From the NCBI GenBank assembly GCA_030619825.1, contig JAUXAS010000023.1, positions 1 to 12,131 on the forward strand: DNA of 12,131 bases, read 5' to 3'. This DNA is from Hadesarchaea archaeon. GTDB lineage: Archaea; Hadarchaeota; Hadarchaeia; Hadarchaeales; Hadarchaeaceae. How positions within the stretch are numbered: position 1 is the stretch's first letter; each line of letters begins with the position of its first letter. The position numbers and the translations under genes were made by a program. This document shows positions 73-9,494 of the stretch, in pieces. The notes below the pieces were generated by a model. It saw nothing but the letters and a program-made list of their open reading frames with translations, made no database searches and was not told where the DNA came from.

Positions 73-678
73 CTGGATCGGCTTAAACACATCGCTGCGG
101 AGCTCAAAGAGCATGCACCTTTCACCGCCTTTGGGGCGGGCTTGGGAGTAGTCGTAATGGCCGTTGTGTCCCTAGCCGGGCTCGACCCAGACATCTCTCA
201 ACACACCTTCCACATTCTGCACCCCGCTCACATGCTACTTAGCGCGACCGTGACCGCCGCGATGTTTAGGCTGCACAGGGGGGGCATCGGGGCCTCGATA
301 GCCGTCGGACTCGTGGGGGCGGCTGGGATATGCGCGATAAGCGACATAGCGTTCCCCTACGTGGGAGGTACGCTACTTGGAGCCACCATGACCTTACACG
401 TATGCCTTTTAGAACACCCGTGGCTCGTGATCCTACCTGGGCTCGTCGGCGCGACAATCGGCACTTTGACGGGGCGCTGGACCAAGTGTCCACATGCGGC
501 GCACGTGCTGATAAGTACTTTGGCGTCGCTCTTCTACCTCATGGCATTCGGGGAGCTTGACTGGCTCCCGATGTTCCCGCTCGTGTTCGTGGTGCTATTC
601 ATAGCGGTTTGGGTTCCATGTTGCACTAGTGATATAATCTTTCCCCTTCTATTTACGAGGAGGATAAAACGTCACTAG
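73..678 (+). CDS. Conserved-looking polytopic membrane protein, His/Cys-rich (about 201 aa), probable CTG start
   Basis: The ORF track starts at TTG 142, but the frame is open back to TGA at 49-51 and reads (CTG)DRLKHIAAELKEHAPFTAFGAGLGVVV, which completes the first hydrophobic helix. CTG at 73 follows an SD-like GAAGGGGT (61-68). There are several TM segments and two HxxH...CxxSDIxFP repeats. The TAG stop at 676-678 overlaps the convergent gene's stop. Confidence 0.75.
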   Translation: MDRLKHIAAELKEHAPFTAFGAGLGVVVMAVVSLAGLDPDISQHTFHILHPAHMLLSATVTAAMFRLHRGGIGASIAVGLVGAAGICAISDIAFPYVGGTLLGATMTLHVCLLEHPWLVILPGLVGATIGTLTGRWTKCPHAAHVLISTLASLFYLMAFGELDWLPMFPLVFVVLFIAVWVPCCTSDIIFPLLFTRRIKRH

Positions 679-1904
679 CCCTTCAACTTTTTCCAAACTC
701 TTCCCTTCGTCGCGACAAGCGCTGCAATTCGGGCCGCCTGAGCATTGCTCGGCATCACCAACACGCCGGCCTTTTCCAGCTTTTCCTTCTGTAACACCAA
801 GCCCTGGGCATCCCGGGGCGTCCCCGTCACCGACGCCACGACGCTGAGGTAGCCTCCCCCCCGATCGGTTACGCGCTTCGCCTCCTCAACAGCTTTAACT
901 AGTTCCCCCGCGGGGTCGGGGTGTGCCCCCTGCCCCAGCACCACGTCCAACACAATTACCGCAGTTTCCCAGTTTCGAGCCTCCTTCAACATCCGCTCGC
1001 ATCGCGGACCTAGGTCGACCACTGGGTGCCGCCCTCGAGCGAGCTCGGCTGCCCCGAAGTCAACGCAGGCATGCCCCCTGCTTGAGTGCGGGTCGGGCAG
1101 CCGCAGCCGTGGCTTCAGGGGAACGTTCGAGCGCACATCACCGATCAGCCCTTGCATGACCACCATAGCTTCCGCGCAGAGCATCTCTCCCGAATAGAGC
1201 CCGCGAATGTACTTCTGCCCGTAGCTGAAGTGCCGGTGCTCCCGCTCCGCAATTTTCCTAACCTCCTCGGGCGAAAGGGTAGAAGTCACCTCGCGGGGTT
1301 CACGCTTCTCGACGAGGGCAACCGCGTGGGCTGCCGCATCCTCGAGCGTTTGAGCAGGAACCACGCCCTTCGGGAACTTGGCCCCGCGCCCCACCCCCAG
1401 AAAACAGACAACCGCGGGCTTTCCCACGGCTTTGACGGCCTTGAGCATCCGCCGCGCGACGCTGGTAGTGGGGGCCAGAGCAATCACCACGATTACCTTT
1501 GTGGACTCATCCTCCCCTAGGAACTTCAGTGCCCCCATCGTCCCCATACCATCGACCCTTTGCGAGAGGTCTCGGGGCCCCACGCCCAAAGCATGGGATA
1601 CTCCAACCTCATCCACCAGACACGAAACTTCCTGAATCCCCGTCCCGAGGGTGCCGACTATTCCCACTGGACCCCGGCGTACGGCGTTGGCGAACCCGTA
1701 GCCCTTGCCCTCGATGATGGTCGTGCTGCACCCCGGGCCCAAGAGCAAAATCTCGCGTTCAGCGGCCGCTTGCTTGAGCTCGATCTCTTCCTCCAGTGAA
1801 ACACCGCCGCTGAGGAGCACCACGTGCTTGCCAGCCCGCAGCGCCCGCATCGCATCCCGAGCCGCGGGGGGCCCGGACACGGAGATTACAACAAATTCAG
1901 CCAT
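675..1904 (-). CDS. FdrA/YahF-like protein (succinyl-CoA synthetase alpha-like CoA-ligase fold), lacking the N-terminal domain
   Basis: Matches recalled E. coli FdrA segments: VISVxG..AA, EEEIELK, LLLGPGCST (FdrA GPDCGT), FANAVRRGPVGIVG, GTGIQEV, SHALGVGPRDLS, IRGLYSG, GH..VDFG, GRHP, LDVVLG.GAHPDPA, VASVTGT..D.Q, PSNAQAA. ATG at 1904 has an SD-like GGGGAA upstream. Confidence 0.85.
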   Translation of the reverse strand: MAEFVVISVSGPPAARDAMRALRAGKHVVLLSGGVSLEEEIELKQAAAEREILLLGPGCSTTIIEGKGYGFANAVRRGPVGIVGTLGTGIQEVSCLVDEVGVSHALGVGPRDLSQRVDGMGTMGALKFLGEDESTKVIVVIALAPTTSVARRMLKAVKAVGKPAVVCFLGVGRGAKFPKGVVPAQTLEDAAAHAVALVEKREPREVTSTLSPEEVRKIAEREHRHFSYGQKYIRGLYSGEMLCAEAMVVMQGLIGDVRSNVPLKPRLRLPDPHSSRGHACVDFGAAELARGRHPVVDLGPRCERMLKEARNWETAVIVLDVVLGQGAHPDPAGELVKAVEEAKRVTDRGGGYLSVVASVTGTPRDAQGLVLQKEKLEKAGVLVMPSNAQAARIAALVATKGRVWKKLKG

Positions 1905-4708: not shown

Positions 4709-5398
4709 ATGATTACCGCAAAAGCTGCAATATTCGACCTCGACTGCACGCTGGTCGACACCCTTAAGCGATTTTATGATGTCTTCAACGAGATGCTCGA
4801 GGAGCATGAAAGCCAACCTCTCGCTTGGGATGAGTTCTTCAAAGGCTACGTTGCGGACACGCTTGACGATGTAGTCGCTGTACCCTCGGACGAAGGGCGA
4901 GAGCGAAAGCTGCACGAGTTCTGGCTAGAGTTCCTCCGAAGGTACCGAGCGAGCGACCCGGGCGGCAAGCTGATCCCGGGCGTGAGGGAAGTTTTCCAAA
5001 AGCTCCACGACGCAGGTGTCCCCATCGCGGTCATCACGAGCTGCATCGCCCCAGCAGCCAAGGTAAGAGAGGAGCTGGCGAGTTTCGGGCTCGATAAATT
5101 TGTGAGCGCGATCGCCACCGGGGACGACGCCATTAGGGACTTGAACGAAAAGCATCACTTCTCCAAGGTTGAGATCCTCAAGCTAGCGGCCGAGAGGCTG
5201 GGGGTCGACCCCCGGGAGTGCGTGACGGTGGGGGACTACTGGAATGATGTAACGGGTGGAAAGGCTTTGGGCGCGAAGACGGTAGCAGTGCTGTCGGGCC
5301 TGATGCGACGGGAGCTCCTAGAGAAGTTTGAGCCTGACGCGATCGTCGAGAGCGTTCGCGACCTGCCGAAAGTCGTAAAGTTTGAAAGTCAGAGTTAG
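4709..5398 (+). CDS. HAD-superfamily hydrolase (phosphoglycolate phosphatase-like, subfamily IA)
   Basis: Motif I IFDLDCTLVDT, motif II VITS, motif III Lys (FSKVE) and motif IV VGDYWND. Start moved to ATG 4709 so that motif I sits near the N-terminus. Confidence 0.88.
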   Translation: MITAKAAIFDLDCTLVDTLKRFYDVFNEMLEEHESQPLAWDEFFKGYVADTLDDVVAVPSDEGRERKLHEFWLEFLRRYRASDPGGKLIPGVREVFQKLHDAGVPIAVITSCIAPAAKVREELASFGLDKFVSAIATGDDAIRDLNEKHHFSKVEILKLAAERLGVDPRECVTVGDYWNDVTGGKALGAKTVAVLSGLMRRELLEKFEPDAIVESVRDLPKVVKFESQS

Positions 5399-5404
5399 CT
5401 TCTG

Positions 5405-5755
5405 GTGAAGGATGTGGTCCGAATCGATGGCACCAGCTTCGGAAGCATAACCGTAGATGGCAAACGCTACCCTCAAGATGTTTGGATCTTCACCGATGGC
5501 TCAATCAAGCGACGGGATCGGGACCACGAGGTCACGCTGGATGAGCTCGACCTCCTGTCCGAGGGAAAGCCTGAAATCGTGGTGGTTGGCACGGGACAAT
5601 CGGACTGCGTTCGAATAGACGAGGATGCTGCGAGGGAAGCTAGCAAGCGAGGAATAAAAATGATCAGCGATGCCACTCCCAACGCTCTCAAGCGATACAA
5701 CGAGGCGGCAAACGCAGGGCGCAGGGTAGCTGGCACATTTCACGTTACATGCTAG
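5405..5755 (+). CDS. Mth938-like (DUF498/AAMDC) domain protein
   Basis: FGSITVDGKRY..DV, H.VTLDEL, KPEIVVVGTGQ, T.NA.KRYN and the family's C-terminal HxTC followed directly by TAG. Confidence 0.88.
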   Translation: MKDVVRIDGTSFGSITVDGKRYPQDVWIFTDGSIKRRDRDHEVTLDELDLLSEGKPEIVVVGTGQSDCVRIDEDAAREASKRGIKMISDATPNALKRYNEAANAGRRVAGTFHVTC

Positions 5756-5763
5756 GTGTCAAA

Positions 5764-6324
5764 ATGGTGCGAGCTTTCATCGGAATTGATATCGACGAGG
5801 CGGTCAGGCACAAGTTAGTGGCTGCCCAAGAGCAACTCCAGGCGACCGGGGCGCAGCTCAAGCTCGTCGAACCACCCAATATCCACGTGACGATGAAATT
5901 TCTGGGTGAGGTTCCCGAAGATAAAGTTGGTGCGATCGCTGAGGCGTTGAAAAGGGCCGCTGCGGGAACAGGGCAATTCGACATCAGGGTTAAAGGCATA
6001 GGTGTCTTCCCGAACCTGCGCTACATCCGAGTCGTGTGGGCAGGCGTGGCCGAGGGGCGTGACGAGGTAATCGGTCTCTATCAGAAAATCGATCGGGAGG
6101 TACAGCCACTCGGTTTTCGCCCGGAGCGGGATTTTGTGCCCCACATGACCGTCGCGCGAGTCAAGACGGCAAAACAAAAGGAGCGGCTGGCAGCTTTTGT
6201 TAAAGAAATGAACGACGCTGAGTTTGGAGTGACACGCGCCCAAGCAGTCGAACTGAAGCAAAGCACGCTGACTCCGAAAGGGCCAATTTACAGCACCCTA
6301 GCGCGGATCGAGCTAAGCATGTAA
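5764..6324 (+). CDS. thpR: RNA 2',3'-cyclic phosphodiesterase (2H phosphoesterase, '2'-5' RNA ligase')
   Basis: MVRAFIGID, two HxT motifs (IHVTMKFLGE, PHMTVARVK), GVFP...RVVWAG and LKQSTLTPKGPIY. ATG 5764 has SD-like AGGTG upstream. Confidence 0.95.
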   Translation: MVRAFIGIDIDEAVRHKLVAAQEQLQATGAQLKLVEPPNIHVTMKFLGEVPEDKVGAIAEALKRAAAGTGQFDIRVKGIGVFPNLRYIRVVWAGVAEGRDEVIGLYQKIDREVQPLGFRPERDFVPHMTVARVKTAKQKERLAAFVKEMNDAEFGVTRAQAVELKQSTLTPKGPIYSTLARIELSM

Positions 6325-6344
6325 CTCGTACTTATCGACGTCGG

Positions 6345-7730
6345 TTAACGATACCAAGGCAGGCAGCGTGTTAAATATTCGGAGATAAACTCGCGAACTT
6401 TTTCATTCTTGCAGAGCTGGACTATATCCTTCCTTCTGTAAATCTGATATCTCCTTGCGATGGCTTCACCCACGTGCTTGCCTAAGGTCGTGCGCTCCCC
6501 CAACGCCTGCTCGAGTACTTTCTTCGCCTTCGCTTGCTCGCGCTCGATCTCAAAGACCAGCCTTCCTGTAGTGTCGACGAATGGGCCGGCGAATTTTCGC
6601 TTCGATTTTAGGTGAGTGTGGATGAAATCCCCCACCTCAATCGAAATTGGAGGTCCGAAGCGGGTGCGAACTCGGGGCAGCTTCTCCACCGCCAACTCGA
6701 GTAGGATGAGGGCCTGAGAATTTGACCACACGTCGCTCCGCATCACCTCAAATCCAGCCCGCGCCAGCCGCGTCACAAGGGCTCGCTCGGCCTTCCGGAG
6801 CTGAGGGTAAAGCACGTCAGGGACAACATCGGGTGGGGAGAAGGTAACGCAAAAGAGTGTTGTTCCCCTCCGCTCCAACGTCGCCTGAATCTCTCGCACG
6901 CTCAGCCTTTGCACGGGCCTCGGGAAGAAAAACAGTTTTCCCGGCTCCTGCGCGAAATCTTGACATGCCCGAACGAAGGTGGCAAAGCTCTGTGTCGACA
7001 CCGCGGCACCCACATTCCGGCTGGCGTCGACGGGATCGATCACAATTAGTGGCTGCCCCTCGAAGAGCGCTCGGGGCTCGGCCTCGTCCGCGTAGCTTCG
7101 TTCTGGGTCGATGACGACACTCGGCCTCCACCGACTTGCCGCCTTGACGAGTTTTTCAAATGAACCGTAGTGCAGTACTAACAGCTCACAGAGGTAGCCC
7201 GAGAATCCCTGTACCCTGAGCTCGGCCCCGTAAATCCCGGTACCCAACATGAACTGCTTGAGCAGAAGGACCTCATCCGTGAGCCCGGGCGTCAGCTGCT
7301 TCTTCACGTAGCGCTGGTGGTGGGGGGAGCGGTCGACTGCGCTGCGGATCTCATTCGGCTTGGTGATATCGTAACAAGGGACGAGATCGACATCGAAGCC
7401 CTTGAATCGCATCGTCACGTAGGGGTGCTCGGCGAAGCTCTCCTTCCCGCGCTTACCGGCCACCTTCCGCGCCACCGCTAGCCCCTGGCGCTCGAGCTCC
7501 TCCCTCGAAAGCCCCTCGGGAAGGAGGATGAAGATATCGATATCGCGCTCGGAACGGAGCTAAGTGTTGCGGGCAGCGGAACCCACGAGCATCGCTTTCG
7601 CTTCGACACCCAGCTTGGAGCAGGCTGCGTTCGTCCGATTGATGAGCTCGGTCGCCACCCGATCGAGACGCTCCCCGTCGGCTGGGGTTGGCTTTTCCCG
7701 CTTTAGGATTGATTTCAAAATTTTATCCAT
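6345..7730 (-). CDS. cca: Archaeal class I CCA-adding tRNA nucleotidyltransferase (461 codons), interrupted by an in-frame TAG at codon 57 (7560-7562)
   Basis: The true ATG is at 7730 with SD-like GGGAGT. It reads MDKILKSILKREKPT...MLVGSAARNT*LRSERDIDIFILLP and continues in frame into FAEHPYV, DVDLVPCY, SAVDRSPHH, LLKQF, YGAE..VQGFSGYLCELL, DPVD..RNVGAA and LYPQL. The ORF track (7475 start) misses the catalytic N-terminus. Functional versus pseudogene status is unresolved. Confidence 0.93.
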
Positions 7731-7790
7731 TTACTCCCGAACACCGATTTATGGCTGGCGTTAAATGTCTAGCGCTTTCTCAAGATGACT

Positions 7791-8819
7791 TCACAGTTTC
7801 CAATAGCTCGCGAGCCCCCGCTTGAGCTCATCGATAACGTTGGGGCGACGAGGTTCGACGGGCGTTGGATGTTTCTCTCCGGCAAGGGTTTTCACAACAT
7901 TTACTACTCCCTCCGCCAAAGCATCGAGCACGTAGCCACCTTCGAGCACAAACACCACCCGCCCCTTGCACAGCCTCTCAGCTTGCTCGACGACAAAACG
8001 TGTGAGCCATCCATAAGCGAGTGTTGATAGTTGCAGCTGTGTGAGCGGATCATCGGCATACGCGTCGAACCCGGCGGAGACCGCGAAGAGCTCGGGCTTA
8101 AATTGCTCGGTAAGCGGCACGAAAATTTCTTCCATGACCCCCATGTATTCAGCATCGCCGCTCCTGGGAGGCATGGGCACGTTGACGGTATATCCCTTAC
8201 CACCCCCCGAGCCCAGCTCGTGGACGAAGCCAGTTCCGGGGTAAAGCGTGAGTGGGTTTTGATGTAACGAGAGGAAGAGCACGCTCGGGTCCTCGTAGAA
8301 GATGTCCTGAGTGCCGTTGCCGTGGTGAGCGTCGAAGTCTAGGACGAATATTCGTCTTAGCTTGAACTCCCGCTTCATGCGCTCGATCATCACCGCGAGG
8401 TTGTTGAAGTAGCAGAATCCCCCGCCCCGCGCTCGGGAAGCGTGGTGGCCCGGGGGGCGGACCAAGGCAAACGCGTTCGAGGCCTCACCCGAGAGCACCG
8501 CGCGCCCGGCATCTATCGTCCCTCCCGCGGCGAGCAGCGCGAGCTCGAAGGTGTTCCTGCGCACCGGGGTGTCGGCATCGAGGGGTCGCTCAGACTTGCT
8601 CAGGTGTTCGACGAGTTTGACGTGCTCGGCATCATGAACAAGCTCGATATCCTCACGTTCAGCTGGCTTGGGCTCGAGTACTCTCACGTTTGGCGTTCCC
8701 CAGAGCTTTGCCCGCCTCAGCGAATCCACAATCGTCTTCAAGCGCTCGGGCCGCTCGGGGTGCCCCCCGCTCGGTTTGTGCTCGAGGTATTTCTCGGAGT
8801 AAACGAGGGTAGTCGACAT
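7791..8819 (-). CDS. Zn-dependent histone deacetylase-family (HDAC/AcuC-like) protein
   Basis: HPERPERL, RPPGHHA, GFCYFNN, DFDAHHGNGTQDIFY, SLHQ, YPGTG, VNVPMP, SAGFD...DPL and LEGGY. Confidence 0.95.
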   Translation of the reverse strand: MSTTLVYSEKYLEHKPSGGHPERPERLKTIVDSLRRAKLWGTPNVRVLEPKPAEREDIELVHDAEHVKLVEHLSKSERPLDADTPVRRNTFELALLAAGGTIDAGRAVLSGEASNAFALVRPPGHHASRARGGGFCYFNNLAVMIERMKREFKLRRIFVLDFDAHHGNGTQDIFYEDPSVLFLSLHQNPLTLYPGTGFVHELGSGGGKGYTVNVPMPPRSGDAEYMGVMEEIFVPLTEQFKPELFAVSAGFDAYADDPLTQLQLSTLAYGWLTRFVVEQAERLCKGRVVFVLEGGYVLDALAEGVVNVVKTLAGEKHPTPVEPRRPNVIDELKRGLASYWKL

Positions 8820-8822
8820 GGT

Positions 8823-9494
8823 TCATTTCTCCACGAGCTTTGCTTGCTTGATGATTAAATATCCGTTGGTCCCCCGCCAGACACGCTCTACCTCGACGGG
8901 CTCGATGCGCTTCTTGAAAAATGGTGCATCTAGGACGAGGCTCTCGTACTCACCTCCCTCCCCGCTCAAGTTGACCTTGTATTTACGATTGAGCTCGAGC
9001 AAATCGCGTACCGCCGCCTCGTCGAGCTTCCTTCCCAACCAGTTCTCATCGAGGCCTTCAGCAGAAACACTTGTCACGATCGCCTCGAAGCCCGCTGCGA
9101 TGAACTCCCGCAAAAGCTCGAGGGGCTCCCTCCCCCAGAGGGGTGCTATCGACTTCAAACCGAGTTCCTCGCAGATGCGGTCTATGCGGCTCTTTTGATA
9201 GTTCGAGGCTATTGCGCCGCTTACCACGCCCTCAACGTCAAGCGTTTGAAGCACTCGTTTCAGATCCTCCAGCTCTGCCTCACGCTCGCCGCTCGTTTCG
9301 GCCTTGATGAGGGGTAAACCCGCACACTCGGCAAGCAAGTCAATGAGCTGAATGTTGGAGAAGTGAAACATCCAGGAGTCCTCTCGCATCGGAATCATTG
9401 CTACTACTTGCGCGACCTCGTGTTCCTGTTGCATTGCGAGCCAGAGCGCATACACGGAATCCTTTCCGCCTGAGCAAAGAACTGTAACCCGCAT
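8823..9494 (-). CDS. dph6: Diphthine--ammonia ligase (PP-loop ATPase, Dph6/DUF71 family)
   Basis: PP-loop SGGKDS, SWMFH, GAIASNYQKSR, APLWG, WLGRKLD and GEGGEYESLVLDAPFFKKRI. Start is ATG 9494 (MRVTVL) or ATG 9500. Confidence 0.9.
   Translation of the reverse strand: MRVTVLCSGGKDSVYALWLAMQQEHEVAQVVAMIPMREDSWMFHFSNIQLIDLLAECAGLPLIKAETSGEREAELEDLKRVLQTLDVEGVVSGAIASNYQKSRIDRICEELGLKSIAPLWGREPLELLREFIAAGFEAIVTSVSAEGLDENWLGRKLDEAAVRDLLELNRKYKVNLSGEGGEYESLVLDAPFFKKRIEPVEVERVWRGTNGYLIIKQAKLVEK

Follow-up and report, generated by a model that had tools for sequence, protein, structure and literature searches.

Solved structures of the archaeal CCA-adding enzyme (PDB 4x4n, 1r89 and 3ouy), which we take to be of Archaeoglobus fulgidus origin, provide the closest comparison for the gene analyzed here. 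It resembles them in its three-domain architecture and motif but differs in that a TAG codon replaces the motif Trp; no further oddity was seen. In some archaea, a class II enzyme is reported to replace or accompany the class I enzyme, and Asgard archaea that pair an inactivated class I enzyme with a class II enzyme set a precedent for a dead archaeal CCA1 (10.64898/2026.05.29.728689). Unlike the Asgard gene, the present one is otherwise undecayed, and no class II enzyme (PF01743) was found in any of the 25 genomes searched, this one included.

Could the in-frame TAG be a recoded codon? Code 34, the archaeal recoding of TAG for pyrrolysine (Pyl), likewise places in-frame TAG codons in essential genes, but fully recoded genomes typically have 5% or fewer TAG terminators, as stated in 10.1101/2024.09.30.615893, compared with about 30% here. 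Furthermore, our assembly is without detected Pyl genes, and its TAG is not common to its conspecifics. The same source reports Pyl machinery in MSBL1, another Hadarchaeota group, and the search for pylS and pylB in the present genome therefore mattered.

The interrupted cca gene

The window, the whole 12,131-nucleotide stretch analyzed, is the entire contig C29 of the Hadesarchaea assembly G000 (990,820 bases, 96 contigs, 89.3% complete). On its minus strand, positions 6345–7730 form one frame of 461 codons followed by TAA, with a sole internal stop, the TAG at codon 57 (7560–7562, minus strand; CTA on the plus strand), around which the translation reads ...LVGSAARNT*LRSERDIDIF.... The earlier note had described exactly this, a single TAG in an otherwise open cca frame, and we likewise found neither a frameshift nor a second stop within the gene.

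When the stop was read as X, three Pfam domains scored above their cut-offs: the NTase head (PF01909, residues 36–136, E = 1.5e-12), tRNA_NucTransf2 (PF09249, residues 152–269, E = 6.7e-42) and CAA_C (PF21133, residues 288–431, E = 1.5e-37). The protein aligned over residues 23–433 with the solved CCA-adding enzymes (E = 6e-80), which read GSYARNTWLKGSLEIDVF in the region of the stop. By its domains and its GS...(D/E)xD signature, the gene is an archaeal class I CCA-adding enzyme, interrupted once. The nucleotidyltransferase signature G50-S51 (7578–7583, minus strand) lies upstream of the stop. Downstream of it, D63-I64-D65 (7536–7544, minus strand), presumably metal-binding, corresponds to the E-I-D of the solved archaeal enzymes, and the third carboxylate, D115, also aligns; among the sequences compared, only this assembly has a stop in place of the motif Trp.

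If the TAG terminates translation, the product would be a 56-residue ORF (7560–7730, minus strand). The first possible restart past the stop is GTG 7475 (codon 86), with no obvious Shine-Dalgarno-like run upstream by eye, and it opens a 376-residue ORF (6345–7475, minus strand). As had been claimed, and as both the translation and the alignment to the solved enzymes bear out, this product would lose G50-S51 together with the catalytic carboxylates D63/D65; it would keep D115.

The flanking genes are a 2H phosphoesterase/2'-5' RNA ligase gene that is convergent with cca (5749–6324, plus strand) and an intact histone-deacetylase-family gene upstream (7791–8819, minus strand), both recognized by ORF and Pfam match. 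Farther away, at 675–1904 (minus strand), lies an acyl-CoA synthetase gene (Ligase_CoA, CoA_binding) that we take to be FdrA-like, beside PCC-domain, amidohydrolase, PHP and HAD genes; the neighborhood is ordinary. In a same-order relative (G036:C18:11715-13101), the cca match falls into two adjacent pieces (residues 1–292 and 298–461), which suggests that the gene of that genome is frameshifted or split.

Codon 57 in relatives and in sequencing runs

The stop column is a conserved Trp, as the earlier note had it. A cca match was present in 37 of 40 relatives, none of the 37 with an internal stop, and the codon at column 57 was TGG in all 29 relative-genome loci fetched. Among 11 metagenome loci, the 10 that cover this column also read TGG; the same organisms may appear twice among the loci compared. 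The two closest loci, L128 (98.1% DNA and 99.3% protein identity) and L129 (97.5% and 97.8%; DNA over 5.1 kb in both cases), are stop-free and carry TGG. A pattern scan of genome contigs that allowed either TAG or TGG returned a single locus, L139 (95% identical), again with TGG. The comparison with close relatives, which the earlier note had named beforehand as removing any need for recoding if it returned TGG, did so.

At least half of the sampled words of the locus were present in 20 sequencing runs from 11 studies (0.81 of the words in the best run), and four of these runs, each from a different study, were examined. The contig over 7561 reads C, and hence TGG, in all four (X1, X3, X9 and X10), at depths of 91.2, 13.5, 58.2 and 6.72, respectively, all of it the non-TAG allele. 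No second allele at 7561 was listed in the contigs of the four runs; since contigs lose rare variants, a low-frequency TAG allele may exist elsewhere. No RNA data set was listed for positions 6000–9000 of the window, which says nothing about expression. The proposed origin of the stop from TGG thus comes down to one base, 7561, which is T on the plus strand of G000 and C in every other sequence that covers it. These results show, at the level of the sequences compared, that the population allele at codon 57 is TGG and that the TAG is confined to this assembly. Conservation of the stop among conspecifics and relatives, which is expected of a programmed read-through or editing site, was not found.

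None of the contigs from the four runs matched the G000 haplotype, and the source sample is therefore probably not among the runs examined. Only two positions in cca set G000 apart from L128 and L129 alike: the stop itself and 7104 (minus strand), a synonymous site at Pro209 (CCA versus CCC) where G000 also differs from all four runs. Around the gene, its 72 private sites comprise 52 synonymous and 19 non-synonymous ones and one stop; since they are mostly synonymous, G000 represents a real haplotype rather than noisy sequence. Differences between G000 and the near-identical contigs come in tracts (5398–5926, 8130–8741 and 9340–9471 of the window), with cca almost invariant, a pattern that looks like homologous recombination within the population.

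Lone stops across the assembly

ORFs of the near-complete congener G002 were aligned to G000 and, as controls, to parts of G001 (31 stretches, 428,770 bases) and G012 (40 contigs, 287,585 bases). A stop was retained when divergence was dominated by third positions, the stop lay at least 20 codons from the alignment ends, both flanks were at least 60% identical and the gene held one stop only. With this filter, G000 has eight lone internal stops in 142,787 aligned codons (569 genes), five of them TAG, two TAA and one TGA, whereas the controls have none in 105,758 codons (0/63,293 in the G001 part and 0/42,465 in the G012 part). The difference (one-sided binomial p = 0.012) is indicative only, because the filter was fixed after earlier stop lists had been seen. 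TAG, TAA and TGA are all represented in this excess of lone stops.

The earlier passes had listed 98 stops in G000 and 49 in the G001 part, mostly shadow ORFs and alignment ends; codon-position filters then left 19, 4 and 6 in G000, G001 and G012, and subsequently 8, 1 and 2 raw stops, of which 8, 0 and 0 were kept. The G001 stop (L107:5632) was dropped for its position upstream of the EMG1 domain and its poor left flank, and the two G012 stops for lying in an ORF without a Pfam match. Also dropped were C9:4924, C6:745, C22:3866 and C91:7992 (shadow frames or ORFs without a Pfam match) and C63:19337 (a repeat near a contig end).

All eight host genes have Pfam matches. Besides cca (7560–7562 of the window, minus strand), TGG is changed to TAG in a radical-SAM protein (C18:710, plus strand) and a TIM-barrel protein (C3:7939, plus strand), to TGA in an RNase H-like protein (C91:197, plus strand) and to TAA in an Ig-repeat protein (C75:295, minus strand), relative to the G002 codons. 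The remaining changes are CAG to TAG in fttA/aCPSF1 (C85:4403, minus strand), CAG to TAA in a cation-efflux transporter (C3:490, minus strand) and GAG to TAG in an M28 peptidase, just after its domain (C35:5954, plus strand). The M28 peptidase and Ig-repeat stops may be natural truncations. The earlier note had proposed a count of in-frame TAGs at Trp columns: three of the eight stops are TGG-to-TAG changes, and TAA, TGA and stops at Gln and Glu columns occur as well.

Two of the interrupted genes deserve closer attention. The fttA/aCPSF1 gene is described as essential in Methanococcus maripaludis in one report (PMC7515710), and at the codon of its stop three congener loci (L183, L184 and L180) read CAG; fttA stops seen in G004, G025 and G031 were rejected as lying outside the aligned gene. 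The gatA gene carries TAA at a Glu column (C12:1904, minus strand) in G000 alone among the 22 genomes with a match, and it was left out of the tally of eight, its query ORF having been truncated by a 20-kb boundary. Since only one Asp/Asn/Lys-type class II synthetase domain was found, GatA is probably needed for Asn-tRNA. The 4,055-bp contig C12 that holds gatA is 80% identical to its G012 counterpart (average 92.5%) and 94% identical to G003 around the stop, a contrast that may point either to recombination or to irregular binning of one of the genomes. Putative frameshifts relative to G002 were noted at C94:2749-3911, in an aminotransferase gene (−1), and at C42:8297-8432, near the start of a Rad50-like gene.

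A contig end lies within 710 bp of four of the eight lone stops, whereas the cca stop lies 4.6 kb from the end. No genome-wide deamination signature and no excess of C>T, G>A or non-synonymous changes was seen in G000; its N/S ratio was 0.303 versus 0.311 in the comparison with G012, and 0.229 versus 0.222 in that with G001. A burden of about eight stops would, however, be lost against 7% divergence. C:G>T:A changes are the most frequent substitutions in the lineage.

Need for the enzyme, reading of TAG and origin of the stop

The earlier note had suggested looking for CCA-encoding tRNA genes, which could make the enzyme superfluous. Most tRNA genes of G000 do encode CCA at the 3' end (26 of 34 ARAGORN calls, one of which, on C41, is spurious), a high share compared with the 25–26% given for two methanogens in PMC7479834. 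On the other hand, the genes for tRNA-His(GTG), tRNA-Asn(GTT) and tRNA-Lys(TTT) end in CC-T or without CC, as do the genes that we assign to Asp(GTC) and Lys(CTT). With His, Asn and Lys tRNA genes lacking an encoded CCA, the enzyme is needed, unless copies of these genes that do encode CCA lie in the 11% of the genome that is unassembled. A second cca, another of the suggested ways out, was not found in G000, where a single PF09249 match is present (genome 89% complete). CCA is encoded for tRNA-His, tRNA-Asn and tRNA-Lys(CTT) in G002 and not in G000, so that encoded CCA has been gained or lost within the genus. The tRNA-Thr(CGT) gene (C69:6040-6114) may hold a further private change: the base that follows its anticodon is T (CGT-T-A), compared with A in G002 (CGT-A-A).

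TAG is an ordinary terminator in G000. It ends 80 of the 268 genes whose ends match G002 (42 of 135 in G001 and 16 of 62 in G012) and 278 of 990 crude ORFs, or about 28–30%, and aRF1 is intact. A search for pylS at E ≤ 1e-20 was negative in all 41 genomes (G000 and 40 relatives) and positive in the control, M. acetivorans; the best pylS and pylB scores in the 89%-complete G000 were 35 and 56 bits, compared with cut-offs of 178 and 348. No tRNA with a CUA anticodon was present among 34 ARAGORN calls, 31 Rfam matches and 33 pattern matches from this incomplete genome, in which tRNA-Trp was not identified. The low-threshold ARAGORN "cta" calls (3 of 323 with -ps90 and 19 of 2,010 with -ps80) are mostly noise; the one with real tRNA arms, which was the call examined in detail, is a "tRNA-Pyl(cta)" at C3:1366-1470 and proved to be a tRNA-Arg(GCG) with an intron, a homologue of that in G002. 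Neither ARAGORN, Rfam RF00005 nor two pattern scripts picked out tRNA-Trp in the near-complete G002 either, and the gap is therefore a detection problem and not a peculiarity of G000; the tRNA-Trp gene may be heavily interrupted. Many tRNA genes of the assembly carry short introns at non-canonical positions, with ARAGORN miscalls at C3:1366-1470, C3:4076-4201, C14:59149-59266 and C24:1293-1400.

What, then, put the TAG into this gene? We consider it probable that the stop is a consensus or DNA-damage error. The gene itself would be a normal class I cca of Hadarchaeota, inherited vertically, in a population that encodes Trp57 (TGG), and one base change, G>A in the coding strand or C>T in the plus strand, would have entered the consensus as a non-heritable event, either as a low-depth base-call or consensus error or as damage fixed during amplification or library building. 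The cca stop would then be one of about eight or nine lone stops in the assembly, with no recoding required. A cell without functional cca, fttA and gatA all at once should not survive, and for this reason we infer that the stops are errors, not heritable alleles. Counting against this reading are the lack of a C>T/G>A or non-synonymous excess, the mostly synonymous private sites near cca, the position of the cca stop well inside its contig, the late choice of the stop filter, the two possible natural truncations and the fact that the controls are partial genomes. The alternative is a real nonsense mutation private to the sampled cell or lineage, with the other lone stops as real mutational load, a reading that we regard as unlikely but deserving of consideration. 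In its favor, G000 represents a haplotype of its own, the remaining private differences of which resemble true polymorphism, no assembly-wide damage signature is visible, and the change belongs to the commonest substitution class. Such a mutation might not be viable over long periods, might be hidden by wild-type copies of the chromosome (related Euryarchaeota are known to be polyploid) or might be the result of drift in a very slow-growing subsurface population. It would, however, demand simultaneous nulls in cca, fttA and gatA in a genome without encoded CCA in its tRNA genes for His, Asn and Lys, in which neither a second class I nor a class II enzyme was found at 89% completeness, and whose congeners bear no such stop load. 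The earlier note had itself ranked an error or a very recent nonsense mutation first, and the private nature of the TAG, with TGG in the relatives and run contigs, agrees with that ranking.

Recoding or editing is very improbable at best, and with dispensability of the gene added, the combined case is still hardly stronger. Insertion of Trp through leaky read-through or through amber suppression specific to this strain, for instance by an unassembled tRNA-Trp(CUA), finds some encouragement in two post hoc observations on small numbers: three of the six transition-type stops are TGG-to-TAG changes at Trp columns versus 16% expected (p = 0.059), and C follows four of the five internal TAGs versus 23 of 80 terminal ones. 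The G000 gene for tRNA-Trp, and hence its anticodon, also escaped our searches, but it did so equally in G002. The near-identical contigs all read TGG, TAG terminates genes as often as in G001 and G012 with aRF1 intact, the one plausible amber tRNA proved to be tRNA-Arg, and the gatA TAA and the other TAA and TGA stops would not be rescued; we find this reading highly improbable. Pyrrolysine at TAG57, for which the MSBL1 report is the chief encouragement, is scarcely credible given the negative pylS and pylB searches, the share of TAG among terminators and a column that is invariantly Trp. Hardly more credible is A-to-I editing of the mRNA (UAG to UIG, read as Trp). A Trp column would formally allow it, but the DNA-level TAG should then be conserved and is private, the 121-nt stretch around it (7500–7620, the one stretch folded) is not unusually structured (z = +0.65 versus shuffles), no paper title on archaeal mRNA A-to-I editing turned up in a literature search short of a full survey, and editing would yield Trp where fttA should have Gln and gatA Glu. 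More generally, since the TAGs fall at both Trp and Gln columns and the TAA of gatA at a Glu column, one suppressor or editor alone would not repair all the stops. The recoding and editing explanations raised in the earlier note are thus not supported. Finally, that cca is dispensable and beginning to decay is hardly plausible: the abundance of encoded CCA favors it, but the His, Asn, Lys and Asp tRNA genes without encoded CCA and a gene free of other lesions speak against it, and G002 is similarly rich in encoded CCA (25 of 39 calls) yet keeps its cca intact.

Returning to the reading as a consensus or damage error, TAG57 is most likely not a real biological feature. The collection uses G000 as the representative of its species, and with roughly one stray stop in every 18,000 codons, those in fttA and gatA included, any gene loss, pseudogene or recoding proposed from this assembly alone calls for a check against conspecific contigs. 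If the stops were fixed instead, they would amount to a striking nonsense load or to suppression in a deep-subsurface archaeon. A strain whose unassembled sequence encoded a Trp-inserting suppressor or leaky UAG-C termination would represent an incipient reassignment of TAG without pyrrolysine, which we hold to be most unlikely; it could allow TGG>TAG and CAG>TAG changes to be fixed in essential genes such as cca and fttA, leaving the TAA and TGA stops unexplained. As a consensus error, on the other hand, the stop would carry little biological weight, as the population, judging from its contigs, encodes a normal CCA-adding enzyme.
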